Source of the DNA: Methylorubrum extorquens
GTDB lineage: Bacteria > Pseudomonadota > Alphaproteobacteria > Rhizobiales > Beijerinckiaceae
Direction: 5' to 3'
DNA length: 32,000 nt
NCBI GenBank assembly: GCA_900234795.1
Contig: LT962688.1
Span: forward strand, 420,001 to 452,000
Below, in pieces: positions 6,864 through 31,751 of this stretch. A program made the position numbers and the translations under genes. Numbering within the stretch: the first letter of the stretch is position 1; each line of letters opens with the position of its first letter. The notes under the pieces are model-generated. The model was given only the letters and a program-made list of their open reading frames with translations, was not told the origin of the DNA and made no database searches.

Positions 6864-7709
6864 TTACGGCGTTCTGCGTTCGCTGCGCCGTGCCATCAGC
6901 CAGGAAAGCGCGCCCACGGCATCGGGGATGGCGAGCACATCCGGCATGGCAGGGCGGTCGACGATCACCACGGGAAGCCCGAGCCGACGTGCGGCCTGGA
7001 TCTTCGGATAGGTCGCCGCGCCGCCGGAATTCTTCGTCACCAGCACCTCGATTCGCGCCTCGCGCATGAAGCGGATCTCATCCGCGAGCGTGAAGGGGCC
7101 GCGGGCGCTGACGGTGACGAGGTTCGGCACCGGCAACGCGTCGCCGATCGGCTCGATCGTGCGCACGACATAAGCGTGCTGCGGCGCGCGGGCGAAGGCG
7201 GCCAGTTCCTGTCGGCCGATGGTGAGGAACACCGTTCTCGGTGCTGGTCCGAGTGCGTCGAGACAGGCCGGCACGTTCGCCGCCGCGATCCAGTCGTCGC
7301 CGGGCTCGCGCCCCCAGGCCGGGCGGCGCACCGCGAGGAGCGGCACCGCGACAGCCTTGCACGCTTCGGCCGCATTGGCCGAAATCCGCGCGGCGAACGG
7401 GTGGGTCGCATCGATCATTGCTTCGATGCTGTTCTCCGAAAGCCACCGCGCCAGCCCCTGCGCACCGCCGAACCCGCCGATGCGGGTCGGCACCGGTTCG
7501 GGCCGCGGCGCGGCGGTGCGGCCAGCCAGCGACAGCGTCACCGAGACATCCGGCTCGCGCGCCAGAAGGGCGACGAGCGCGCTGGCCTCGGTGGTCCCGC
7601 CGAGGACGAGGATCCGCAGGGGCGGTGCATCGGGATTCGGCGTGGGATGGAAGGCGGGAGAACCCTGGTCGGCGGCTCCGGACATTCGTACAACCTGTCT
7701 CGCCCGCAT
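6864..7709 (-). CDS. cobK: precorrin-6A / cobalt-precorrin-6A reductase
   Basis: ...[37 protein letters not shown]...[19 protein letters not shown]...[28 protein letters not shown]: CobK/CbiJ pattern. Two in-frame ATGs (7709 and 7685); start unresolved. Confidence 0.85.
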
Positions 7710-7711
7710 CA

Positions 7712-7729
7712 GCCCGGCAAAGGCCGGGC
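7712..7729 (+). promoter_or_regulatory. GC hairpin immediately upstream of the dinB ribosome-binding site
   Basis: GCCCGGC-aaag-GCCGGGC (perfect 7-bp stem, 4-nt loop) followed by GAGGTTTTCGAC-GTG. The GAGG is the likely SD for the dinB GTG at 7742. Function unknown. Confidence 0.35.
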
Positions 7730-7741
7730 GAGGTTTTCGAC

Positions 7742-9019
7742 GTGAGACCCTTCTGCCGCGATTGCCTGACGATGCAAGCCGACGGCGCCCTGCGCTGCCG
7801 GGGATGCGGCTCGCCGCGCCTGCTCTCGCACCCGGCCCGCGACGCCTTGAGCATCGCCCATGTCGATTGCGACGCCTTCTACGCAGCGATCGAGAAGCGC
7901 GACGACCCGTCCTTGCGCGACAAGCCGCTCATCATCGGCGGGGGTAAGCGCGGTGTCGTCTCCACCGCCTGCTATCTCGCCCGGATCTCCGGCGTGCGCT
8001 CGGCGATGCCGATGTTCGAGGCGTTGAAGCGCTGCCCCGATGCCACGGTGCTGCGGCCGGATATGGAGAAATACGCCCGCGTCGGGCGCGAGGTGCGGGC
8101 GATGATGCTGGCGCTGACGCCGCTGGTCGAGCCGGTCTCCATCGACGAGGCGTTTCTCGACCTCTCCGGCACCGAGCGCCTGCACGGGACGAGCCCGGCG
8201 CTCACGCTCGCCCGCTTCGCCGCACGGGTCGAGGCGGAGGTCGGCATCACCGTGTCGGTGGGACTGTCCGACAACAAGTTCCTGGCCAAGATCGCCTCGG
8301 ATCTCGACAAGCCGCGCGGCTTCTCGATCATCGCGGGTGCGGACGCCGCGACCTTCCTCGCCGACAAGCCGGTCGGCATCCTGCCCGGTATCGGCGAGAG
8401 CGCGCGAAACCGCCTCGCTTCCCTCAACATCCACCGCGTCGGCGACATTGCGCGGGTCGATCCGACGCGTCTCCAGGCATCCCTCGGGCGGGATGCGCTG
8501 CGTCTCATCGATCTCGCCGCCGGCCGGGACCGGCGGCCGGTGCGCCCGACCCGGGAGGCCAAGAGCGTCTCGTCCGAGACGACCTTCTCAACCGATCTCA
8601 CCCGGTTCGAGGATCTGCGGCCGATCCTTTGGCAGCTCTGCGAAAAGGTGTCGGCACGGCTCAAGCGGGCGGAACTCGCCGCTGGCAGCGTCACGCTGAA
8701 GCTGAAGGATGCCCGATTCCGGCTGCGCACCCGCACCCGCGGCGGACTGAAACCCACCCAGCTCGCCGACCGGCTCTTCCGCGAGGGCGAGCCGATGCTG
8801 CGGGCGGCCTGCGACGGCACGGCCTTCCGGCTGATCGGCATCGGCGGCGGCGATCTCTGCGGCGCGATCCATGCCGACCGCGGCGATCTCGCCGATCAGG
8901 GTATCGAGCGCGTCGCCCGCCGCGAGGCGGCGCTTGACCGGCTGCGGGAAAAGTTCGGCAGCGCCGCGATTCAGCGCGGGCTCGTCTTCACCGGCGAGCC
9001 GGAGCGGCGGCGCACCTGA
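7742..9019 (+). CDS. dinB: DNA polymerase IV (Y-family) with N-terminal CxxC...CxxC extension
   Basis: Track ORF 7241..9019 is over-extended: its first 167 codons are antisense to cobK. GTG 7742 preceded by GAGG (7730-7733, 8-nt spacer) gives (M)RPFCRDCLTMQADGALRCRGCGSPRLLSHPARDALSIAHVDCDAFYAAIEKRDDPSLRDKPLIIGGGKRGVVSTACYLARISGVRSAMP..., with SIDEAFLDLSG and SVGLSDNKFLAKIASDLDKPRGF. Confidence 0.88.
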   Translation: MRPFCRDCLTMQADGALRCRGCGSPRLLSHPARDALSIAHVDCDAFYAAIEKRDDPSLRDKPLIIGGGKRGVVSTACYLARISGVRSAMPMFEALKRCPDATVLRPDMEKYARVGREVRAMMLALTPLVEPVSIDEAFLDLSGTERLHGTSPALTLARFAARVEAEVGITVSVGLSDNKFLAKIASDLDKPRGFSIIAGADAATFLADKPVGILPGIGESARNRLASLNIHRVGDIARVDPTRLQASLGRDALRLIDLAAGRDRRPVRPTREAKSVSSETTFSTDLTRFEDLRPILWQLCEKVSARLKRAELAAGSVTLKLKDARFRLRTRTRGGLKPTQLADRLFREGEPMLRAACDGTAFRLIGIGGGDLCGAIHADRGDLADQGIERVARREAALDRLREKFGSAAIQRGLVFTGEPERRRT

Positions 9020-20907: not shown

Positions 20908-21075
20908 ATGACGCAATCGGAGCCCGCGAAACCCGGCGATGAAGCACCGCCCGGAACACCCGGAACGGGTGAGAACCTGTGTCCCCGCTGTAGCGGAAGT
21001 GGCCAGATCGAAGCCAAAGCTTGCCCGGACTGCAACGGCACCGGCAAAGTGATCGCCGGCATCGGTGGCGGCTGA
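20908..21075 (+). CDS. 55-aa zinc-ribbon protein with two DnaJ-type CxxCxGxG motifs (not in ORF track)
   Basis: GAGGGAG (20894-20900), 7-nt spacer, ATG 20908: MTQSEPAKPGDEAPPGTPGTGENLCPRCSGSGQIEAKACPDCNGTGKVIAGIGGG, stop TGA 21073-21075. CPRCSGSG and CPDCNGTG are exact CxxCxGxG repeats. Confidence 0.6.
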   Translation: MTQSEPAKPGDEAPPGTPGTGENLCPRCSGSGQIEAKACPDCNGTGKVIAGIGGG

Positions 21076-21154: not shown

Positions 21155-21169
21155 GAACGAAAATAGAAC
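21155..21169. promoter_or_regulatory. alphaproteobacterial LexA (SOS) box, copy 1
   Basis: GAACgaaaataGAAC, an exact GAAC-N7-GAAC direct repeat (complement GTTC-N7-GTTC). Flanks GCTA...AA are identical to those of the box at 27884-27898. It lies 100 nt upstream of the 84-aa gene start at 21269. Confidence 0.7.
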
Positions 21170-21268: not shown

Positions 21269-21523
21269 GTGACGATGCGGACGACCTACCTCGTGCAGAC
21301 CTTCATTCTGAAGCGCAAACGTCTGTGCCCCGGCGACCAGCAAGTGTCGCCGACGGTGAACGGTGCACTGAAGCGGGCCGAGGCGATGGCCACACGGCTG
21401 CCAGGCACCGCCGCGATCCAGATCGTGGCCGACGACGAAACGGGGGAGTTGGAAAGCGCGACGATTCTCGGCCGGTTCGGCGAGGTGCCGGAAGACTTCG
21501 CCGAGACGCTGCAGGCCGCCTGA
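21269..21523 (+). CDS. 84-aa protein of unrecognised family, paralogue 1 (SOS-box linked)
   Basis: GGGAG (21255-21259), 9-nt spacer, GTG 21269: (M)TMRTTYLVQTFILKRKRLCPGDQQVSPTVNGALKRAEAMATRLPGTAAIQIVADDETGELESATILGRFGEVPEDFAETLQAA. Same length as 28265..28519 and 67/84 identical by hand count. The shared GAGAACC just upstream supports this start over track start 21227. Confidence 0.75.
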   Translation: MTMRTTYLVQTFILKRKRLCPGDQQVSPTVNGALKRAEAMATRLPGTAAIQIVADDETGELESATILGRFGEVPEDFAETLQAA

Positions 21524-22376: not shown

Positions 22377-22449
22377 CGCAGCGGTCACGTGAGAGCGGTC
22401 GCCGACGACAACTCGCGTCGCGATCAACGGCCGAGCACATCGTGAAAGG

Positions 22450-22476
22450 GAGCCGCCTCGGAAGACCGGGCGGCTC
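22450..22476 (+). terminator. possible terminator hairpin after the SnoaL-like gene
   Basis: GAGCCGCC-tcggaagaccg-GGCGGCTC; weak T tract (tcgctctta). Confidence 0.3.
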
Positions 22477-22671
22477 TCGCTCTTATCGAGGCGGTGCAAG
22501 GCCGATGCGCAGAACGCCCTTCAAGCGCGCGCACGTGCGATGCGGGGGCAATTCAGCAAATTCCGTCGGGCGGATCACACACGAACAGCCCTGCGCAGCC
22601 GTCGCTCTCGCGGTCATTCCAGCGCACCTAAGAGTTCGGAAACCGCAGGCTTCCGAGAGCTTGGAAAAGTT

Positions 22672-22720
22672 TGGCTCCCAGAGCCGACCTTGAACCTGCA
22701 ACAAAGCGATGAACAGTCGG
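22672..22720 (-). repeat. decayed tRNA-Asn 3-prime fragment (outer att-type repeat)
   Basis: In tRNA sense: CGACTGTTCATCGCTTTGTTGCAGGTTCAAGGTCGGCTCTGGGAGCCA. It aligns to the copy at 24378-24427 with about 9 substitutions that break the T-arm and the anticodon loop. No D-arm or 5-prime acceptor strand follows. Confidence 0.6.
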
Positions 22721-22895
22721 GTGGAGTGGCTGACTTTTTTGAGAGACGGCAACACGGAGAGGGTGATTCGCTGAGGCGAGATTCACCCTGCGGTAACATC
22801 CTGTCTCGCTTGCGCGCGATCGCCGGGATAGGCTGGCGGCAAGGTTGAACTCCAACGCCTCGCACTCCGCCAAGCCCTCCTGCCTCAGCATGACC

Positions 22896-23198
22896 TCAAT
22901 GCAAATATTGGGGGCTTGGCGCGTTGAGATGGGCGCTGATCGTCACTTCCAAGATGCTGAGCTTCAAGCGCAGCTGAAGAATGGTCGGCGCGACTAACTC
23001 TAGATCAACGCCATCGATCGCCACCTCATGAAGCTCGGTGAGCAATCGATAGATCTCGACCAAATCGTCATCGGATATCAGGTGAAAACCGTCCTGCCTC
23101 AACGCATTGTGCGCTCTCACCAGCGCAAGCACCCGTTCAACGAGAAGGTCCAAATCGGCGAAAACGATCAGTGTTTCTGTTGCTTTTTTGAGATCCAT
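22896..23198 (-). CDS. hypothetical protein (100 aa), island remnant cargo
   Basis: Track ORF; MDLKKATETLIVFADLDLLVERVLALVRAHNALRQDGFHLISDDDLVEIYRLLTELHEVAIDGVDLELV...; helical, leucine-rich, GC far below the genome average; no family recognised. Confidence 0.4.
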   Translation of the reverse strand: MDLKKATETLIVFADLDLLVERVLALVRAHNALRQDGFHLISDDDLVEIYRLLTELHEVAIDGVDLELVAPTILQLRLKLSILEVTISAHLNAPSPQYLH

Positions 23199-23310
23199 AA
23201 TTCCACGGCTGGCGACGCATTTCTGCGAGGCACAACCGTCGTCAACGCGGGTTACGAAGAGTTATGGAAGGCCGCAGGCGCCGTTAAATATAATTTCAGG
23301 ATGTATCATT

Positions 23311-23556
23311 CTATAAAATCAACATAGATCCGTCCGTGCGATGACGCACCTCAGAGAAATTGGGCAAATACAAACTCAAATTGAGTAGTTGCCCGCGCCA
23401 ATATTCAATCAAAGACTCAAAAATCACTTCAAATAACTTGATCCTACCAGATTTCAAAACATACTCGGCATTCTCCGCTACGCGTTTATCGAACTGGCCC
23501 ACCGACTCGTTCGGACCCGTCGAGCGCTCACGACTGCACGTCTTGCCGACGAGCAC
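23311..23556 (-). CDS. doubtful ORF in AT-rich DNA (81 aa)
   Basis: Track ORF only. The C-terminal half lies in DNA of about 30-45% GC. No SD or motif recognised. It may be a gene fragment. Confidence 0.2.
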   Translation of the reverse strand: MLVGKTCSRERSTGPNESVGQFDKRVAENAEYVLKSGRIKLFEVIFESLIEYWRGQLLNLSLYLPNFSEVRHRTDGSMLIL

Positions 23557-23739
23557 GCGACCGGCGATCCCCGCACTCGATCAGAGCCTCACGCAGGAGA
23601 GAATGACCCTGTCCGTCGTTGTTCGACTTGGACGGGTCCTTGGCCCCCACCGAGCACCGGGCGCAGGTCCTGAATCGTCTCGGCAAGGAGAAGGACTGGC
23701 GCGGATCTTACGCGGCTTGCGACCGGGACGAGCCCTGCG

Positions 23740-24242
23740 CCCGATCGTTCGCACGTTGCTGGCGCTCCACCACACCGGCGCCAACATTGAAATTTGGTCC
23801 GGCTGATCCGACGAGGTGAAGGACAAGACGACGGCTTAGCTTGCTGATCATGGGCTGGGACCCATCCCGATTCGGATGCGCCCGCGCGGGCGACCGCCAG
23901 CCCTGGTGTTCGAGGATCGCGCATCCATGGTGGCCCGGCCAATGCCAGAAACGAACGGCCACGAGGTCGCCGAGCATGACCTCAGCCACGACCCTGAACG
24001 GCTCGCCGAGATGCCGCTGGCGTCGGCCCCTCGTCATCGACGAACGCACCGGCCTCCCATGGCGGCGCTCGCACTTCAGCCGCACGTACCGCGAGTTCGC
24101 GCGTGCCTCCGGCTGGCCGGACGGCATCTGGAACATGAACAGCAGGGCAGGGGCGATGAGTGAGGCTTGCGAGGCTGGGGCGGTGCCGGACAACGTGATG
24201 CGCACCGCGACGCCCACACCGATATCGACAACGATGCTCTAA
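23740..24242 (+). pseudogene. tyrosine-recombinase (integrase) pseudogene, C-terminal part, frameshifted
   Basis: Integrase-like pieces are split over at least three frames: ...TLLALHHTGANIEIWSG* (compare LLALxTGxRxGExxxLxWSD), ...PPALVFEDR..., and RPLVIDERTGLPWRRSHFSRTYREFARASGWPDGIWNMNSRAGAMSEACEAGAVPDNVMRTA... (second catalytic Arg region). The His and Tyr segments are missing or out of frame. It ends 135 nt from the tRNA-Asn fragment. This is a motif-level call only. Confidence 0.4.
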
Positions 24243-24377
24243 AACCGCGGACCGATGGTTCCGTCGGGCCGCGCTACGAACGGCGTGGCGAAAAGCGAAG
24301 CTCGGCGGCTAAAAACGGCCGAGGAACAACGGCGGCAACACGCCTCTGCCGTAGATCCGCTATGTGATTGAGAGATT

Positions 24378-24427
24378 TGGCTCCCCGAGCAGGACTCGAA
24401 CCTGCGACAAAGCGATTAACAGTCGGG
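24378..24427 (-). repeat. tRNA-Asn(GTT) 3-prime fragment (att-type repeat), not an intact tRNA
   Basis: In tRNA sense: CGA-CTGTTAA-TCGCT-TTGTC-GCAGG-TTCGAGT-CCTGC-TCGGGGAG-CCA. That is an anticodon loop with GTT, a variable loop, a perfect T-arm with the GGTTCGAGTCC box, a 3-prime acceptor strand and CCA. Upstream sequence (caatcacatcaccc) cannot form the D-arm, the 5-prime acceptor strand or the full anticodon stem. Confidence 0.7.
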
Positions 24428-24457
24428 GTGATGTGATTGATTTCATTGGATGACGTT

Positions 24458-24501
24458 ACCGCGGGGAGGGGCTTACGCTCTTACGGAAATCTCCCCGCGG
24501 T
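24458..24501. other. perfect 11-bp hairpin 30 nt inside the element B end
   Basis: ACCGCGGGGAG-gggcttacgctcttacggaaat-CTCCCCGCGGT. A weaker hairpin (AGGGTGA...TCACCCT, 22760-22789) sits at the equivalent offset from the decayed fragment of remnant A. Confidence 0.6.
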
Positions 24502-24547
24502 GACCGGCAGGCTCGCCCGATCCGGCGCCACGGGATAGGCTCGGGAA

Positions 24548-24814
24548 ATGGCTGATTTCTCCCCCACCGTCGGCGAACTCTTCAAGGCCAACGTCGTCAC
24601 CCATGACGATCTGAACGCGCTGATTGATGCCGTTCTCGCGGGCCGGATGAATGTGCAGGAGGAACTCGCCGAGGGCTACACGCTCGACGTGGCAGCCGCC
24701 GTGAAGGCAAACGCCTTCGCTACCGCTGTTTTGCGCGACAAGACGAGCACGACTGGTGCTAGGCGCACCGCCACCCGCACAGCGATCCTGCTGGCGCGTG
24801 CGCAGAAGGCGTGA
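24548..24814 (+). CDS. hypothetical protein (88 aa)
   Basis: Track ORF; MADFSPTVGELFKANVVTHDDLNALIDAVLAGRMNVQEELAEGYTLDVAAAVKANAFATAVLRDK...; weak SD; no family recognised. Confidence 0.4.
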   Translation: MADFSPTVGELFKANVVTHDDLNALIDAVLAGRMNVQEELAEGYTLDVAAAVKANAFATAVLRDKTSTTGARRTATRTAILLARAQKA

Positions 24815-24854
24815 GGAAGACCGACCGGTAAGCCTGAAGCAACTCAGCCACCCT

Positions 24855-25280
24855 ATGCCGTCGGCCCGTTCTCAGCCGGCAGCCGTGATGCTACTTCCCG
24901 AACTTGCGCCCGATCATCTCCCGCCTGAGGCCGCCGAGTGGCGGAAAGCCTTCGGTGCCCTGCGCCCAACCTCCTCACCGTGCCGCTACCTCGGCGTCAC
25001 CGCCTGGGCGAACATCTACGAGGCCTGCACCGATTTCATCGAGCGCTTCGGCGACGAGGCTGTACGCCTGGGCTGGAGCGCGCCGCAGATCTTCGGTGTC
25101 CACCCCCAGCATGGCACGCTGCGCATAGACTGGTGCGGGGTGATGATCACCGGCGGGAACAAGGCGATCGGCATCGAGCCCAACCGGATCCTGTTCGGCA
25201 ATGTCAGCGGCTACCGGGACACGCCCGGCGCGCCGACCGGCATTCCGATCTGGGAGTTCGCGGCGCGACAGAAAGGATGA
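24855..25280 (+). CDS. hypothetical protein (141 aa)
   Basis: ATG 24855 within track ORF 24756..25280: MPSARSQPAAVMLLPELAPDHLPPEAAEWRKAFGALRPTSSPCRYLGVTAWANIYEACTDFIERFGDEAVRLGWSAPQIFGVHPQHGTLRIDWCGVMITGGNKAIGIEPNRILFGN... Coding-like composition; no clear SD, so the start is uncertain. Confidence 0.45.
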   Translation: MPSARSQPAAVMLLPELAPDHLPPEAAEWRKAFGALRPTSSPCRYLGVTAWANIYEACTDFIERFGDEAVRLGWSAPQIFGVHPQHGTLRIDWCGVMITGGNKAIGIEPNRILFGNVSGYRDTPGAPTGIPIWEFAARQKG

Positions 25281-25730
25281 TGCTCCACGACCGCAAAGAC
25301 ACGGCCGCTACACAGATTGAGCAACGTCTCGCATCGGGCGAGGTAGACCCGAGCTAGCAGCCGATCGCGGCGCTTTGGTATCTGTCTATCCAGATGCGAC
25401 GCCTGCCAGACGAGGCATGATCTCACTGCGTGACCTCAATGCAATCCGAATGAACCTGCGCATTAAAACACGACCGACGATGGCCGGGCGAATTATAAGG
25501 TATCTATATAAATCTTTGAACTTCTCTCAAAATATCTTTGTTACCCACCTTACGCATAGCTCATGGATTAGCCGATGGCTGATATACCTACAGGTTCTGC
25601 ATAATATCGAGCAACGCTGTTCCGTACCGCATTATGGTGCGTTGCACCCAGAGATTACCGCGTCGCACAAATTCCGTGGTTCAATCTCTCATCGGTCGCC
25701 GTCACTGGCCGGCCACCCCGGAGACGATCC

Positions 25731-25961
25731 ATGCGTACGATGCAGCTTCTTTCCCTCGCCGCTCTCGCATCTGTCACCGTGGCGAGTTCCGCCATGGCCG
25801 ACGAGAGCATCCACCTGACGCCGCCGCTGTTCCGTGAACAGGCCCGCGCCACCGCGTCTGTCCGCCCGGCGTCCGAGCTGACGACCACACCTCACATCAC
25901 GGCTGTGGCCCCCGCCAGCCGCAAGATCGTGGCCGACGCCGCCGCGGCCTCTGCTCGCTAA
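25731..25961 (+). CDS. small secreted protein (76 aa)
   Basis: GGAGA, 6-nt spacer, ATG 25731: MRTMQLLSLAALASVTVASSAMA signal peptide, then DESIHLTPPLFREQARATASVRPASELTTTPHITAVAPASRKIV... Confidence 0.5.
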   Translation: MRTMQLLSLAALASVTVASSAMADESIHLTPPLFREQARATASVRPASELTTTPHITAVAPASRKIVADAAAASAR

Positions 25962-25973
25962 GTCCTCGGTGAT

Positions 25974-26006
25974 GGGGCCGTCGCCGGATTTGGCACCGAT
26001 GGCCCC
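25974..26006. terminator. imperfect hairpin between convergent 25731 gene and umuC
   Basis: GGGGCCGTCGCC-ggattt-GGCaCCGAtGGCCCC followed by TTCCCTC. Confidence 0.3.
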
Positions 26007-26070: not shown

Positions 26071-27411
26071 TCACCTCAAAGCAGCGTAAGCCACGGGTAG
26101 CTCGTCGACCTGCGTCGTGTAGCGCGGCGTGCGCATTTCGAACTTCGTCGACCAGGTGCGCCGCTGCTGCGCCAGACCGGCGCGCGCCGGTACCACGCTG
26201 CCGCGGCCGAAGCGGGCATTGCAGGCGTCCAGCGCACCCATGAGCCGCGTCGAGCGCTCGCGGTCGAGCCGGCCGATCAGCGCCCGCTGCGAGGCCGCCA
26301 GCGGCACGAGATCGACCGTGACTACCCCGGCCTTCGAGTAGCGCCAGGGCGGGCTGCCCTGCTCGCGCCAGGTGCGGGCCACGCCATGCATTGCCGCCGA
26401 GATCAGCGCCAGCGTGTCGTTGGTCGCCTCCGGCAGCGTCACCACCGTCGAGACCGAGCGCATCGGCTCGCCTCGGTCGTGTTCGCTCGTGTGGTAGAAG
26501 ACGGTGATGTGGTCGGTACCGAGGCCTTCACGCCGCAGCTTTTCGCCGAGGCGCGTTGCATGGGCAGCCACTGCTTGCTCCAGCTCGGCCCGTTCCGTCA
26601 CCCGGCCGGAGAATGAGCGCGTCACCGCACACCCCTTACGGCGAGCCGGCACGAGTTCGAGCCCGAGGCAGGACACGCCTCGCAGCTCGTGGATCATACG
26701 CTCACCCACCACCGTCAGCGCCTTGCGCACCGGGCGCGGGTCGATGTCGCGCAGGTCCGCCACTGTATCGATGCCCATGGCCTCGAGCTTCGGCAACGAG
26801 GCTCGGCCGACGCCCCACAGCTCGCCGACATGGATGCGGCAGAGCCAGTGCTCGTAGGCGGCGGGCTCGGTCAGGTCGCAGACGCCGTCGAGCTCAGGCA
26901 CCGTCTTGGCGATGTGGTTGGCGAGCTTGGCCAGCGTCTTGGTCGGGCCGATGCCGACGCAGGTCGGGATGCCCGTCCAGGCCCGCACGGTAGCGCGGAT
27001 ATCGCGGGCCAGCGCCACGCGATCCCGGCGCACGAAGCCGGTCAGGTCGAGGAAACTCTCGTCGATCGAGTAGATTTCCACGTCCGGCGTGGCGTCGCGA
27101 TAGATCGCGTTGATGCGCGCCGACATGTCCCCGTAGAGCGTGTAATTCGACGAGAATACGCGAACGCCCTGTGCCTCGCAGAACCCGCGGATCTTGAAAT
27201 AGGGGTCGCCCATCTTGATCCCGAGCGCCTTGGCCTCGGGCGTGCGGGCGATGGCGCAGCCATCGTTATTGCTCAGCACGATCACCGGCACGCGGGCGAG
27301 CTTGGCGTCGAACACGCGCTCGCACGAGCAGTAGAAGCTGTTGCCGTCGATGAGCGCGAGGGCGCGGCCGCCGCCGATCCGGTCGCGCTGACGGGCCTCG
27401 GCGTTGCTCAT
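26071..27411 (-). CDS. umuC: translesion DNA polymerase V catalytic subunit UmuC (Y-family)
   Basis: [74 protein letters not shown]...[12 protein letters not shown]...[17 protein letters not shown]. The start overlaps the umuD stop (ATGA at 27408-27411). Confidence 0.9.
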
Positions 27412-27875
27412 CGGCCCTGTCCGCCGCGGGCGACGTGCCAGCGGATGGTGAAGCGGACCACGCCCCAGACATCGACCTCGGCTAGTTCCTCGAGCGCGTA
27501 GGCGGGCAGGTCGGCATTGTCGAAGGAGAGGTGCGCGCGGTTGCCCTCGACGACCATGCGCTTGATCGACATCTCACCGTCGACCGCCGCCACGACGACG
27601 CTGCCGTGCGCAGGTTTGAGGCTGCGATCGACGCAGGCGAGATCCCCGTCGAAGATCCCAGCATCGCGCATCGAATCGCCAGCGATGCGCCAGAGGAAGG
27701 TGGCCGGCGGGTTCGGCACGAGCCAGCGCGGCAGTTCCAGTGCGCCTTCTAGAAAGTCGTCGGCGGGAGAGGGGAAGCCCGCGCAGAGCGCTTGGCCCAT
27801 CAGCGGCACACGAACTGTGGAAAAGCCCTCCTGCGGTAGCTCTGCGACCGTGTGCAGCCTCACTCGAGTCCCCAT
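27408..27875 (-). CDS. umuD: UmuD-like S24 peptidase (LexA C-terminal-domain type)
   Basis: ...[33 protein letters not shown]...[49 protein letters not shown]: an AG-type cleavage region, then catalytic Ser (GDSM) and Lys (SIKR). The start is either ATG 27875 or GTG 27863, which has GGGGA 5 nt upstream. Confidence 0.88.
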
Positions 27876-27883
27876 CTGAGCTA

Positions 27884-27898
27884 GAACAGAAAGAGAAC
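27884..27898. promoter_or_regulatory. alphaproteobacterial LexA (SOS) box, copy 2, in the umuD / small-gene-operon divergent spacer
   Basis: GAACagaaagaGAAC, an exact GAAC-N7-GAAC. Flanks GCTA...AA are identical to copy 1. It lies 8 nt from the umuD ATG codon and 95 nt from ATG 27994 on the other strand. Confidence 0.8.
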
Positions 27899-27993
27899 AA
27901 ACAGCAGGCGCGTGGCGGGTTCAATCGGCTCTGTGCGCCAAGCGCAAACGGCTGTGTGCGCCTGTGGATAACGGGGACAGAGGGGTGATGACG

Positions 27994-28254
27994 ATGTCGC
28001 AGGAGCGCTGCCACTTCCACTGCACGGACGGCCGGGATGTCGTCTTCGACCTGCAGGGGCGGGCCGTCGCAGAGCACGACCTGCGTCCGGTCTGCGCCAG
28101 CGTGGCGGCCGAGGTGATGCAGGGCTGCGCTGCTCCGGTCGACTGGTCAGCCTGGATCGTCGAAGTGCATGACGCCTACGGTCAGCACGTGATGACGTTC
28201 AGCTTCGACGAGATCGCGAACGAGGTCGGCATCCGGCCGGCGCTGGCAGCTTGA
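27994..28254 (+). CDS. DUF6894-like small protein (86 aa)
   Basis: GAGGGG, 8-nt spacer, ATG 27994: MSQERCHFHCTDGRDVVFDLQGRAVAEHDLRPVCASVAAEVMQGCAAPVDWSAWIVEVHDAYGQHVMTFSFDEI... This matches my recollection of the DUF6894 pattern (xxYxFHLxDGxxxxxDxxGxE...WxxxVxDxxGxxVxxxxF). The track ORF begins at GTG 27964. Confidence 0.5.
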   Translation: MSQERCHFHCTDGRDVVFDLQGRAVAEHDLRPVCASVAAEVMQGCAAPVDWSAWIVEVHDAYGQHVMTFSFDEIANEVGIRPALAA

Positions 28255-28264
28255 GGAGAGAACC

Positions 28265-28519
28265 ATGGCCATGAAGACGACGTTCCTGGTCCAAACCTTC
28301 GTGCTCAAGCGGAAGCGGCTCGTCCCCGGAGACCGGCAGATCTCGACGACGAGCAGCGCAGCGTTGAAACGGGCCGAGGCGATGGCTGCGCGCATGCCAG
28401 GCACGGCCGCCCTGCAGATCGTGGCCGACGACGAGACGGGCGAACTGGAGAGCGCGACGATCCTCGGGCAATTCGGTGAGGTGCCGGACGATTTCGCCGA
28501 GAGCTTGCAGGCGGCCTGA
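28265..28519 (+). CDS. 84-aa protein of unrecognised family, paralogue 2 (SOS-box linked)
   Basis: GAGGAGAG, then ATG 28265: MAMKTTFLVQTFVLKRKRLVPGDRQISTTSSAALKRAEAMAARMPGTAALQIVADDETGELESATILGQFGEVPDDFAESLQAA. 67/84 identical to 21269..21523. Confidence 0.8.
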   Translation: MAMKTTFLVQTFVLKRKRLVPGDRQISTTSSAALKRAEAMAARMPGTAALQIVADDETGELESATILGQFGEVPDDFAESLQAA

Positions 28520-28521
28520 CC

Positions 28522-28734
28522 ATGCGGACCATCGTCGAACTCGACAACGGCAGCGCCGCGGCCATCAGCGACGGCGGCAAGGATCTCGCGGACCTCCTGG
28601 CCCGCGCGCTCATGACGGGAAGCGACGCCGCGTGGGACAAGTTGCGGCCGTATGGGATCAGCCGAATCGTTGAGCGTCACCCGACCGAGCCAGCGAAGGT
28701 TGTTGTCGGCGAACGCGCGATCGCGGTCCGGTAG
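28522..28734 (+). CDS. hypothetical protein (70 aa)
   Basis: ATG 2 nt after the preceding stop (tgaccATG): MRTIVELDNGSAAAISDGGKDLADLLARALMTGSDAAWDKLRPYGISRIVERHPTEPAKVVVGERAIAVR. Confidence 0.55.
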   Translation: MRTIVELDNGSAAAISDGGKDLADLLARALMTGSDAAWDKLRPYGISRIVERHPTEPAKVVVGERAIAVR

Positions 28735-28738
28735 GCCT

Positions 28739-28936
28739 ATGACCGACGACCAAACCGCCGCCGAGCTGCGCGGCCTGCTCCGGTTCGCGCAGGGCCTCGG
28801 TCTGGACGAGGCGACCGTGCGGGAGATCTACGAGGCCGTCGGGCGTGAGGCCATGGCGACAGGCGCCAGCGACGACACCCGCATGGCCGAGTTGCGGAAG
28901 CGGATGCTCGCGGCGGCGAGAGGAGGCTGGGACTAG
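28739..28936 (+). CDS. hypothetical protein (65 aa)
   Basis: ATG 28739, 4 nt after the preceding stop, inside track ORF 28652..28936: MTDDQTAAELRGLLRFAQGLGLDEATVREIYEAVGREAMATGASDDTRMAELRKRMLAAARGGWD. Confidence 0.5.
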   Translation: MTDDQTAAELRGLLRFAQGLGLDEATVREIYEAVGREAMATGASDDTRMAELRKRMLAAARGGWD

Positions 28937-28984
28937 AAAAACCTGCTGCGGCTGAGATGGGCGGGGCCGCCTCACGGCGAGGAG

Positions 28985-30550
28985 CTAGCGCCCCATGCAG
29001 ACGTAGCTGATCGATTGCGGTGCGTTTGATGCCGCAATCGTCATGGCAATGCCTTGGCGAGAAGTCTCGTAAGCAGGTGCATGCATTCCTCCGAGCGAGG
29101 AAGATACAACACAGTCGGGGATATCATTGTAGGTCGCTGCAAAGCGGATAGTGCAGCCAGCTTCGCCGGATTGCATTGAAATGGTCCCGTGAAGATCATT
29201 GGCTGACTTGGATAGCTTCGACGCTCCACAGCCGCTTATGGATAGTTTTGGCCCCGGCCGGGCCGAGAGGTGCCTTCCCACATCCACATCACCCGAGTTG
29301 TATGCGGCCAGAGAATAGCTTGACCCGGAATTTGTCGCGCCAAGCGTAAAAGCCTGTATTGCGCCATTCCATCCGAACGACGCTCGTCCGCTCCAACTCA
29401 GAAATGTCGTCTGAGGTAGAACTGCGAAGTTGCCGCTTGCGAGAGTCGCTCGACTGAAATCCAGTCCACTGTCGTGCTTTCCGTCTGCGCGTAGAACGGC
29501 AAACGAGTCGCTTTGATCGTACAAGAAGGCGATGGAGTGCCGCCTCTGAGCAGCACTCTTGAGCGTTACGTCTGCATTCGTGCTGTCGAAAATCACAGCA
29601 TCCTTGACCACGGAGCCGACATCGGTCGACGGCCCGCCGCTCCAGTAGTCACCGTAATGTGCGCCATACGGATTGGCGCCGCCACTGTTGACTGCGCCCG
29701 AGCCAACATACCGATAGGCGAGCATAGGGAACGTGCCAGGCCCTTGGCCGCCGATGAACGAGCACGCCATGAAGTACGGCGAGCCGATATCGCTGTCCTT
29801 GTTCCCATTGCTGCAGTCGCGCTCCTCGCCGAAAATCGTCACGTCGCCTACTCCGGGCAGCACGGTCGTGTTGGTGACGAAGCCCCACCCCGCACCCGTT
29901 CCAGGCTCGAAGTTGGCGGCGATCGAAAAGGCACTCTTCCCGTTGTTCGCGCCTGGGCCGAGATAGGCCCACACGATGGAGCCATCTCGAAGGTTGGTAC
30001 CGTTTCCGGTCGGGCCCTCCCCACGGGGCGCTGAAGTGCCGGCCGACTGCGCGCGGTAAAGACAGCCGGGCACGGTCTGCGTTGCGCCTCCATCGACTGT
30101 CACAGAGCACTTGGAATTGAGGACAGCGACCGTCTCGCCAGCTTCGTAGCGAGTGCCTGGCTTCCAGTATACAACCTTGCCTTTATCGCTTGTGAAGTTG
30201 AGGTGAAATCCGACCTCCTGTGCAGTTGCATCCTTCTGCGTTCGGACATTGACAAGGATTGGTGTCAGCAAATGCGGGCCATCGAAACACCCGCCGACTG
30301 AGCAGAAGTCGATCATAGGCCCATTCGGATGTACGAAAATCCCAAGCGGCTGCTCCCTGCTCTTCTCGCCATGGACACGCATCAGCGAAGGGGCGCCCAG
30401 GGGGAGGATCGATATCGCTCGATCGACTTGTCCTGATGGCGCGCTTGCCGGGTCCGAAGCGTTCTGCAGTGGCTGAGCGGAAATCGTCCCTGCCGTGGAG
30501 GCGACGGCGAGCAGGCTGTAAAGCCCTACCTGTGCGGGGCGAGTGAGCAT
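28985..30550 (-). CDS. secreted 521-aa protein of unknown function (Gly/Ser/Asn/Thr-rich, probably beta-rich)
   Basis: MLTRPAQVGLYSLLAVASTAGTISA-QP Sec-type signal peptide. No motif recognised; 13 Cys in total. GC is clearly below its surroundings (64/120 = 53% hand-counted at 29041-29160). It has its own upstream region after a strong terminator. Confidence 0.7.
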   Translation of the reverse strand: MLTRPAQVGLYSLLAVASTAGTISAQPLQNASDPASAPSGQVDRAISILPLGAPSLMRVHGEKSREQPLGIFVHPNGPMIDFCSVGGCFDGPHLLTPILVNVRTQKDATAQEVGFHLNFTSDKGKVVYWKPGTRYEAGETVAVLNSKCSVTVDGGATQTVPGCLYRAQSAGTSAPRGEGPTGNGTNLRDGSIVWAYLGPGANNGKSAFSIAANFEPGTGAGWGFVTNTTVLPGVGDVTIFGEERDCSNGNKDSDIGSPYFMACSFIGGQGPGTFPMLAYRYVGSGAVNSGGANPYGAHYGDYWSGGPSTDVGSVVKDAVIFDSTNADVTLKSAAQRRHSIAFLYDQSDSFAVLRADGKHDSGLDFSRATLASGNFAVLPQTTFLSWSGRASFGWNGAIQAFTLGATNSGSSYSLAAYNSGDVDVGRHLSARPGPKLSISGCGASKLSKSANDLHGTISMQSGEAGCTIRFAATYNDIPDCVVSSSLGGMHAPAYETSRQGIAMTIAASNAPQSISYVCMGR

Positions 30551-30710: not shown

Positions 30711-31067
30711 TCAGTCGGCCCGGCGCCCCGTGATCGCCTGGAGCATTTCCCGGCGGGTCGCGGCCATTTCCTCTCGCATCGAGGTCACGAGGTCGTCGAT
30801 GCGGCGCTCCATCCGGGTGATGACGTCGCCGGTCACGTAGGTTCGGGCAACTTCGACCTTGAAGTTGTGCAGGGCCTCGTTCTGTGCCGCGATCTGGATC
30901 TTCACGGCCGCCATGTCGATCGTCAGGGGGGACACCGCGTCCTTCGTGCCGGCTCGCAGCTTGCCGATGACCCAATCCGCCCCCTTGCCGAGGGCGAAGA
31001 GGAAGGCAGCGAGCGCCACGATCTGCGCCCAGGTAATCGGGCCGGGCGAGAGGAACGAGGTGTCCAT
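30711..31067 (-). CDS. phage-type membrane protein: N-terminal TM plus coiled coil (DUF2730-like architecture)
   Basis: MDTSFLSPGPITWAQIVALAAFLFALGKGADWVIGKL... then heptad-like ...IAAQNEALHNFKVEVARTYVTGDVITRMERRIDDLVTSMREEMAATRREMLQAI. It starts 4 nt after the upstream stop. Confidence 0.45.
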   Translation of the reverse strand: MDTSFLSPGPITWAQIVALAAFLFALGKGADWVIGKLRAGTKDAVSPLTIDMAAVKIQIAAQNEALHNFKVEVARTYVTGDVITRMERRIDDLVTSMREEMAATRREMLQAITGRRAD

Positions 31068-31071
31068 AGGA

Positions 31072-31488
31072 TCAGGCCTTCAGCAGGCGGGCGGCGCCGG
31101 CGCGGGCCAGCGTCGTGAGTGGCGAGGAGATGAAGAAGGCCGTCAGGATCGTGGCCTCGATCGGCACGTACTCAGGCGGGAGCGGCTGAACGTTCCAGCC
31201 GAGATCGAACGTCTTCGTCAGGCAAGCCGCCCCGAAGTGGATCGCGGGCGGGATGCCAATGCCGTAGATCAGGCCCTTGAAGGCCGGCGCGATCGCCGCC
31301 TTCGCCTGATTGGCCGCCATCTCAGCCTGGACGACCTGCACCGCGACGTCGCGCTGCGTGTTCTGGCCGTTCTCCATCCCCTTGAGGATGGGCTGCAGCA
31401 CCGAGTTGCCGAACACCTTGATCAGGCCGGAGCCGACGGCGCCGAGCGCAGAGCCGATCGGGTTCGAGAGCCAGCCGAGGAGGCTCAT
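31072..31488 (-). CDS. putative holin-like membrane protein (138 aa)
   Basis: ATG 31488 overlaps the upstream stop (ATGA): MSLLGWLSNPIGSALGAVGSGLIKVFGNSVLQPILKGMENGQ...GLIYGIGIPPAIHFGAACL...IEATILTAFFISSPL. A glycine-rich N-terminus plus hydrophobic segments resembles the 3-TM holins of alphaproteobacterial phages and GTAs. Architecture-level call only. Confidence 0.35.
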   Translation of the reverse strand: MSLLGWLSNPIGSALGAVGSGLIKVFGNSVLQPILKGMENGQNTQRDVAVQVVQAEMAANQAKAAIAPAFKGLIYGIGIPPAIHFGAACLTKTFDLGWNVQPLPPEYVPIEATILTAFFISSPLTTLARAGAARLLKA

Positions 31489-31751
31489 CGCGGCGGCTCC
31501 CGTGCCGGCAGGGTGGCGAGCTTCGTCGCGTAGGCACGCGCCGCGAGCCGAGCCACCGCGAGGAAGGTCGCCACCTTCGCGCCCGGCAGCCACTCCGGCA
31601 GCAGCGGCGTGAGATCGACGCCCGGCAGCGCATCGAGGACGTCGGGCAGCGCCATGACGCCCGCGAGCAGGTAGACGCGCTTGCCCGAGGCCGCGCGCCA
31701 GCAGCGGCGCAGGCCGAGGCGGGCCCGTGCGAGGAAGGGACGGGGCGCCAT
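31485..31751 (-). CDS. hypothetical protein (88 aa) in the phage-type cassette
   Basis: ATG 31751 inside track ORF 31485..31970, 3 nt after the upstream stop: MAPRPFLARARLGLRRCWRAASGKRVYLLAGVMALPDVLDALPGVDLTPLLPEWLPGAKVATFLAVARLAARAYATKL... Confidence 0.4.
   Translation of the reverse strand: MAPRPFLARARLGLRRCWRAASGKRVYLLAGVMALPDVLDALPGVDLTPLLPEWLPGAKVATFLAVARLAARAYATKLATLPAREPPR

Follow-up and report, generated by a model that had tools for sequence, protein, structure and literature searches.

A LexA box between umuDC and divergent small genes of Methylorubrum extorquens, and a candidate family of SOS accessory proteins

Introduction

The DNA analysed here, hereafter the window, is a stretch of 32,000 nucleotides (nt) from Methylorubrum extorquens (contig LT962688.1, positions 420,001 to 452,000 of the forward strand) that carries the umuDC operon for DNA polymerase V (Pol V) and, divergent from it, four closely packed small open reading frames (ORF1 to ORF4). 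A single perfect LexA box lies in the spacer between the two units. The explanation preferred for the locus as a whole, held with somewhat more confidence than doubt, is that this box is an operator shared by both units and that ORF2, the second gene of the rightward unit, belongs to a family of SOS accessory proteins. Judged by its conserved sequence context, ORF2 is very likely a previously unrecognised DNA-damage-response gene; its family, of about 84 residues, is undescribed in the papers searched.

SOS regulons outside the enterobacteria consist mostly of lists of unnamed genes; as for error-prone polymerases in Alphaproteobacteria, what restrains or licenses them is largely uncharted. 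The ORF2 family is compact and very strongly conserved, and in several families of Hyphomicrobiales its position links it to LexA boxes, to umuDC or SRAP genes and to repressors of prophages; it offers a concrete candidate regulator of mutagenesis and prophage induction in plant-associated and methylotrophic bacteria.

Results

A perfect LexA box in a short divergent spacer

The locus comprises the following features, with lengths in amino acids (aa):

umuC: 26071-27411, minus strand; 446 aa, Y-family polymerase, catalytic subunit of Pol V; overlaps umuD by 4 nt
umuD: 27408-27875, minus strand; 155 aa, ATG at 27875; Pfam Peptidase_S24 (1.2e-21)
LexA operator: 27884-27898; GAACagaaagaGAAC, a perfect match to GAAC-N7-GAAC (GTTC-N7-GTTC on the umuD strand)
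ORF1: 27994-28254, plus strand; 86 aa, DUF6894 protein
ORF2: 28265-28519, plus strand; 84 aa, conserved core, member of an unnamed small-protein family
ORF3: 28522-28734, plus strand; 70 aa, lineage-restricted small protein, 2 nt after ORF2
ORF4: 28739-28936, plus strand; 65 aa, small acidic helical protein, co-directional

The leftward operon consists of an S24-type, self-cleaving UmuD followed by a Y-family UmuC, with Pfam matches of the latter to IMS (2e-36), IMS_C (6.8e-18) and DUF4113 (2.9e-17), and its DNA is 80% identical to the annotated umuDC of M. radiotolerans pMRAD01. The UmuD translation contains an Ala-Gly site (LCAGFPSP), a Ser motif (GDSM) and a Lys motif (SIKRM), which, by comparison with E. 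coli UmuD, are presumably its cleavage site and its Ser/Lys motifs. The spacer from the umuD ATG to the ORF1 ATG (27994) measures 118 nt; the box is separated from the umuD start by 8 nt and from ORF1 by 95 nt. ORF1 to ORF4 are separated by gaps of 10, 2 and 4 nt, Shine-Dalgarno-like motifs precede ORF1 (GAGGGG) and ORF2 (GAGGAGAG), and the GC content at third codon positions is 0.84-0.88 in all four, a coding signature in a genome of ~68% GC; the closest public sequences are those of Methylorubrum extorquens. An initial annotation of this DNA, made from the sequence alone, had already placed the box, the spacer, the four ORFs, their gaps and the ribosome-binding motifs as they are given here, and had named the leftward operon umuDC; the former agree with a reading of the sequence and the ORF listing, the latter with the Pfam matches.

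The GAAC-N7-GAAC pattern occurs twice in the window against 0.74 expected, and at least twice in 21 of 100 shuffled sequences; because the pattern by itself is not rare, the significance of the box rests on its position and its conservation.

The box follows the ORF2 family beyond umuDC

Conservation was surveyed by scanning for the ORF2 family in one genome per species, which yielded 80 loci; context was assigned by tblastn and boxes were then searched for. The loci fell into three settings, with one (L022) left unclassified where the contig starts inside the DUF6894 gene:

ORF2-family gene divergent from umuD, with or without a DUF6894 gene between: 26 loci; perfect box in 26/26
ORF2b-P91 pair without umuDC: 12 loci; perfect box in 10/12, 73-125 nt upstream
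Standalone ORF2-family copies in ordinary chromosomal settings: 41 loci; perfect box in 0/41

Two further umuD-adjacent sequences, pMRAD01 and locus L005, have one perfect box each in the spacer. Throughout the 26 umuD-adjacent loci, pMRAD01 and L005, the first leftward gene starts 3-10 nt away from the box, or ~18 nt away where an extra small gene precedes umuD; the distance to the first rightward gene is mostly 101-119 nt (range 77-178 nt). Alignments of the umuD-linked loci show invariant half-sites and a variable N7 within the conserved context tA-GAAC-N7-GAAC-AAACAG. A perfect direct repeat next to the umuD start, retained in every umuD-linked locus while its N7 varies, supports the reading of the box as an alphaproteobacterial LexA operator given in the initial annotation; the SOS box of Caulobacter is likewise GTTCN7GTTC (PMC9578287). 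Among predicted proviruses in IMG/VR, 42 loci were found and the box was present in all 39 that could be assessed, some of these being the same contigs as genome loci. Many short-read assemblies (L002-L009) end exactly at the start of the DUF6894 gene, which is consistent with umuDC forming a multi-copy repeat in those genomes.

The loci without umuDC bear most directly on the rightward unit. Against a background of 0.093 boxes per kb (604 kb of surveyed loci), the frequency of boxes before ORF2b-P91 corresponds to a binomial P of ~3e-19. One such pair lies in the window itself, beside the only other match to the pattern:

Second LexA box: 21155-21169; GAACgaaaataGAAC, no umuDC beside it
ORF2b: 21269-21523, plus strand; ORF2 paralogue, 79-80% identity, start GTG at 21269 or ATG at 21275
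P91: 21551-21826, plus strand; 91 aa, without family assignment, follows ORF2b

This box lies ~100 nt upstream of ORF2b, the position at which the ten boxed P91-type loci also have theirs, and it can serve only ORF2b-P91, because the gene upstream (55 aa) is co-directional and ends at 21075. Apart from the 12 loci without umuDC, the pair was found in one umuD-linked locus (L090). The upstream gene (20908-21075) encodes a zinc-ribbon protein that consists almost entirely of two CxxCxGxG zinc-finger motifs, with weak matches to DnaJ_CXXCXGXG and Anti-TRAP.

More distant homologues were found in nine independent contexts, six of them with a perfect box and six with a gene of the S24 family no more than 2 kb away:

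L098/L099, Bosea: homologue divergent from an operon of small genes with SRAP as its last gene; box 37 nt upstream
L100, L146 and L147, Mu-like prophages: box followed by an S24 gene of 152 aa, with the homologue 12 nt behind that gene
L148/L149, Mu-like prophage of Allorhizobium: homologue behind a CI-S24 repressor gene, with a boxed promoter of its own; box 43 nt upstream
L103, lambdoid prophage: tandem pair of homologues that converges with cI; box 284 nt upstream
L152, P22-like prophage: homologue convergent with cI; box 43 nt upstream
L102: homologue next to an ATP-dependent DNA ligase gene; box 64 nt upstream
L105: S24 gene 1.6 kb away; no box
L150: two DUF6894 genes nearby; no box
L151: umuDC 1.6 kb upstream; no box

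The tandem genes of the lambdoid arrangement (L103 3501-3978, L104 49-544) converge with a CI gene that encodes a helix-turn-helix and an S24 domain, so transcripts from the LexA-boxed promoter would extend into cI in antisense.

Boxes kept near ORF2-family genes in the absence of umuDC thus lend strong comparative support to the proposal, made in the initial annotation, that one box gates both units. Its companion idea that the small genes travel with Pol V is not supported as stated, since the family also occurs box-less on the chromosome and in prophage immunity regions.

Five loci with long spacers of 337-347 nt (L035, L038, L053, L074 and L083) were considered as a natural experiment and set aside: an extra 75-aa gene stands before umuD in them, the box heads both operons, and the loci therefore do not discriminate. 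This gene belongs to a third small-protein family of 72-75 aa with the C-terminal pattern ...R(D)R.VSRG(Y/F) (L035 3388-3615 and L098 1575-1793, both minus strand; blastp E = 4e-4). It is the first leftward gene before umuD in some Methylobacterium and before the SRAP operon in Bosea, and it always adjoins a LexA box.

Putative promoters overlapping the box

Candidate promoter elements were located on both sides of the operator, followed by a conserved leader:

Putative umuD promoter: 27896-27924, minus strand; -35 TTGAAC (27919-27924), 17-nt spacer, -10-like TTTGTT (27896-27901)
Putative small-gene promoter: 27859-27887, plus strand; -35-like CTCACT (27859-27864), 17-nt spacer, -10 TAGAAC (27882-27887)
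Conserved leader elements: 27927-27978, plus strand; direct repeat GGCTcTGTGCGCC / GGCTgTGTGCGCC (27927-27939 and 27950-27962), then CCTGTGGATAACGGGGAC (27961-27978)

On the minus strand, TTTGTT overlaps the right half-site of the box. The motif GGTTCAA/GGTCAAG (TTGAAC/TTGACC on the minus strand), ~13 nt right of the box, and AAACAG are kept in umuD-linked loci and lost where umuD is missing, as expected if the element is the umuD promoter. On the plus strand, the last four bases of TAGAAC are the left half-site, and the sequence GCTAGAAC presumably corresponds to the -10 consensus of Caulobacter sigma-73, GCTANAWC. P91-type loci without umuD have invariant GCTCAC and TG(c/a)TAGAAC left of the box, separated by 16-17 variable nt, a pattern we infer to be the signature of a -35 and a -10 element. 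The Allorhizobium homologue has TTGACT-N13-TAGAACaaaatgaGAAC, 43 nt before the ATG; TTGACT-N13-TAGAAC overlaps its box. Since both candidate promoters straddle the operator, one LexA dimer would block both. A scan of 27700-29100 with an E. coli-type promoter/terminator model, which is not alphaproteobacterial, found neither kind of element.

The direct repeat of the leader is 13 nt long (GGCTnTGTGCGCC) with a 23-nt period, and CCTGTGGATAACGGGGAC contains TGTGGATAA, which is complementary to the consensus DnaA box, TTATCCACA; in P91-type loci the corresponding leader position is occupied by a related motif, CGTGAATGGCGG. As for a cis-regulatory leader RNA, no Rfam family matches in the window, and the predicted folding of the leader is no more stable than that of shuffled sequences (z = 0.56).

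ORF2 is the constant gene; its companions vary

Close homologues of ORF2 number 353, all in Methylobacterium/Methylorubrum, 75-100% identical and several per genome. A profile search of 1.84 billion representative sequences returned 193 clusters at E <= 1e-3, mostly of 78-87 residues, and the family has roughly 1,945 members in all; the named members beyond Methylobacteriaceae belong to Bosea, Aurantimonas and Allorhizobium, each annotated as a hypothetical protein. Standalone copies occupy several conserved chromosomal settings. A neighbour-joining tree of ORF2 genes groups them partly by lineage and not by context, and leaves the association with the box undated.

ORF2 has no match in Pfam, NCBIfam, PHROGs or PADLOC, and its family profile has none among Protein Data Bank (PDB) sequences. 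No convincing Pfam match was found among 38 members; DUF2188, matched weakly by one of the 38 (E = 0.0047), was rejected as too thinly supported. The AlphaFold2 model (mean predicted local distance difference test score, pLDDT, 82) has a beta-beta-alpha-beta-beta-alpha order, that is, a helix between two beta-hairpins and a further short helix at the C-terminus, in a protein predicted to be soluble and acidic (isoelectric point ~5) with a basic N-terminal hairpin (KRKR). Foldseek with this model returned nothing significant (best E 0.31 in PDB and 0.015 in BFVD, the latter to uncharacterised phage proteins).

ORF1 matches DUF6894 (PF21834) above the gathering threshold (28.9 bits, cut-off 24.1; residues 5-71 on profile positions 1-68 of 69), and in 14 of the 26 umuD-linked genome loci a gene of this family separates ORF2 from the box. 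DUF6894 is without assigned function, and no mention of it was found in the literature search. The idea that ORF1 and ORF2, which both look beta-beta-alpha-beta-beta, are distant paralogues was dropped after hhalign found no relation.

ORF3 and ORF4 have no Pfam, NCBIfam or PHROG match. The 75 homologues of ORF3 all belong to Methylorubrum or close Methylobacterium strains and none is named; its AlphaFold2 model has a pLDDT of 69, and a structure search with it gave no match. In strain Leaf123 a homologue of ORF4 (L062 6133-6324) comes after another gene, of 88 aa, without umuDC or ORF1-3; ORF4 is not obligatory in the module. The order ORF1-2-3-4 is preserved in four provirus loci of Methylorubrum (L106-L109), and L111 has ORF2-3-4 without ORF1. 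The genes 3' of ORF2 homologues (ORF3, P91, an 80-aa gene in Bosea and others) are mutually unrelated, except for the tandem duplicate in one prophage. ORF3 and ORF4 are read as lineage-specific passengers, probably co-transcribed.

The initial annotation was right that only ORF1 resembles a named family and that ORF2, ORF3 and ORF4 cannot be placed by these searches. The four-gene module that it proposed is not conserved as a unit: ORF2 is the constant element of the rightward unit and the only universal gene of the four, ORF1 accompanies it in about half of the umuD-linked loci, and ORF3 and ORF4 are confined to the Methylorubrum lineage.

Discussion

Proposed regulation and role

In the proposed mechanism, one LexA operator, lying between and overlapping two divergent promoters, would bind one LexA dimer that represses both umuDC, to the left, and the small-gene unit, to the right; the two would be induced by DNA damage. 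ORF2 would be the functionally conserved part of the rightward unit, with ORF1 a frequent companion, and its family a recurrent member of the LexA regulon in Hyphomicrobiales and their prophages. That LexA controls the plus-strand unit is held with good confidence on comparative sequence grounds. The protein itself may be a damage-induced accessory on the axis of RecA* and S24 proteins (UmuD, CI, LexA), which could tune the processing of UmuD to UmuD', the use of Pol V and, in prophages, repressor cleavage. Among possible roles this one is put forward because the family is found repeatedly next to S24 proteins (UmuD, CI-type and Mu-type repressors) or an SRAP operon; it is offered tentatively, by analogy with DinI/ImpC of enterobacteria and DdrR of Acinetobacter, which occupy a corresponding niche. 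Equally speculative is the wider proposal of a new class of SOS effectors, in Hyphomicrobiales and temperate phages, that would bind RecA* or S24 proteins (UmuD, LexA, CI-type). If true, the threshold at which Pol V is activated and prophages are induced would be set by the family, a counterpart of DinI, Tum and DdrR without homology to them, and the box-less housekeeping paralogues would give a basal level.

Several observations weigh against this reading. P91-type loci keep the first umuD codons (aaaacaggCTCAC) upstream of their box, which shows that they derive from umuD-linked copies; as samples they are not fully independent. Two of these loci and three distant ones (L105, L150 and L151) have no box, and neither do the 41 standalone copies, which implies that use of the protein is not limited to the aftermath of DNA damage. 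The motifs at 27927-27978, in the 95-nt leader between box and ORF1, could be an independent promoter or the site of another regulator. The literature search found no Methylobacterium data on start sites, expression or LexA binding. As to function, the family shows no similarity to DinI by Pfam or hhalign and no structural match in PDB or BFVD.

Comparison with known systems

The layout most resembles that of Acinetobacter, in which ddrR (78-81 aa) is divergent from umuDAb, a single operator overlaps the promoters of the two genes, and damage induces each of them (PMC7273328). The likeness is one of layout only: ORF2 has 84 aa and belongs to a unit divergent from umuD, with a single box in the 118-nt spacer, but in Acinetobacter the repressor is UmuDAb itself and LexA is missing, whereas here the box is a canonical LexA box and an ordinary 155-aa UmuD is followed by umuC. 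To our knowledge, Acinetobacter is the only described case of umuD and a small gene diverging from one shared operator; the occurrence of this layout here suggests that it arose more than once.

ImpC, DinI and Tum are homologous; DinI and ImpC are accessories of the RecA*/UmuD pathway. With these two and the DinI-like prophage genes of enterobacteria the ORF2 family shares small size (~80 residues), in all likelihood SOS control, and places beside umuDC-type operons, in prophages and on the chromosome. It differs in predicted topology, two beta-hairpins around one helix, and in standing divergent from umuDC, not upstream in the same operon, as the accessory gene does in impCAB beside umuDC homologues (PMC7092418). 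The ORF2 family gave no Pfam match to DinI at E <= 1, with none among the 38 members, and hhalign against a presumed E. coli DinI sequence returned a probability of 0.3%.

A LexA box of its own beside a repressor gene is the layout of LexA-gated induction switches. Distant ORF2 relatives in immunity regions, beside cI or Mu-type repressor genes and with their own box, resemble in this respect prophage antirepressors such as Tum of coliphage 186; however, most members of the family lie beside umuDC or in ordinary chromosomal settings, and several of the neighbouring prophage repressors carry their own S24 cleavage domain and so would need no antirepressor.

The textbook mutagenesis cassette of Alphaproteobacteria is imuA-imuB-dnaE2; here the box heads umuDC and an unnamed protein family instead. 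The operator motif itself is the same GTTC-N7-GTTC as in the SOS regulon of Caulobacter (PMC9578287), placed over the promoter of a mutagenesis operon.

Other explanations

Were ORF2-family proteins co-regulators in the manner of DdrR, they would bind an S24 protein (UmuD, LexA or a phage repressor) at the DNA and aid repression instead of modulating RecA*-driven cleavage. Size, divergence from a umuD homologue and a shared operator fit ddrR-umuDAb (PMC7273328, PMC11332147); the basic N-terminal hairpin and the homologue that follows the S24 gene at the repressor position in Mu-like prophages also speak for this view. The boxes here are nevertheless canonical LexA boxes, UmuD lacks an N-terminal DNA-binding extension, ORF2 is acidic overall, and DdrR is reported to occur in Acinetobacter alone and to lack homologues (PMC7273328); this alternative is given a small share of the probability. 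Rated as unlikely is the view that the box regulates umuDC only and that the small genes, near the box merely because umuD adjoins, are expressed outside SOS control from a promoter of their own further downstream, close to the conserved CTGTG...TGTGGATAAC block. The asymmetric position of the box (8 nt from umuD, 95 nt from ORF1) and the conserved leader motifs speak for it, and 41 members of the family are evidently expressed without a box; but boxes persist before ORF2b-P91 after umuDC has gone, distant homologues in Bosea, Allorhizobium and prophages are boxed 37-64 nt from their start codons, one of them with a clear -35, and in loci that lack umuD the umuD -35 decays and the box does not.

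The small genes might also be cargo of a mobile element, such as a toxin-antitoxin or other addiction pair or a phage moron, with no part in the response to DNA damage and with the box merely timing expression to induction of the element. Positions 22.7-28.74 kb of the window are an indel relative to strain Leaf123, where they are absent, and in the DM4 genome umuCD lies in an 8.2-kb island (PMC2680597), which agrees with the island location proposed in the initial annotation; many copies occur in predicted proviruses, and the gene 3' of ORF2 varies. Yet none of the four proteins matches a toxin, antitoxin (type II included) or defence family in Pfam, NCBIfam, PHROGs or PADLOC, the sole hit being ORF4 to PDC-S48 (E = 0.006, 13 bits); ORF2 is often a single gene in ordinary chromosomal settings, and its 75-100% identity across the genus would be unusual for an addiction module, so the cargo view appears improbable. 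Least credible, and given almost no weight, is a division inhibitor of the SulA, SidA or YneA kind. Such inhibitors are usual in SOS regulons, and the known ones are small and lineage-specific (PMC4211646); against this, the four proteins have no membrane-spanning stretch (maximum 19-residue hydropathy 0.28-0.97) and no match to SulA or another Pfam family of this kind, and the ORF2 family co-occurs with S24 and translesion-synthesis genes, not with division genes. The shared operator with an ORF2-family accessory is kept as the preferred explanation.

Other features of the window

A second Y-family polymerase gene (~7850-9019, inside an ORF at 7241-9019; IMS 7e-47) is DinB-like and belongs to the core part of the window, where it lies among cobalamin-biosynthesis genes; no perfect LexA box precedes it. 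Two segments around the umuDC locus (22400-26000 and 28985-30550) are low in GC (0.56-0.61) and contain few convincing genes; a 521-aa minus-strand ORF in these segments has no Pfam, PHROGs or PADLOC family. Further right, at 30711-31593 on the minus strand, genes of 118 and 173 aa have weak PHROG matches to phage families without assigned function, which points to a prophage remnant on that side of the small genes.

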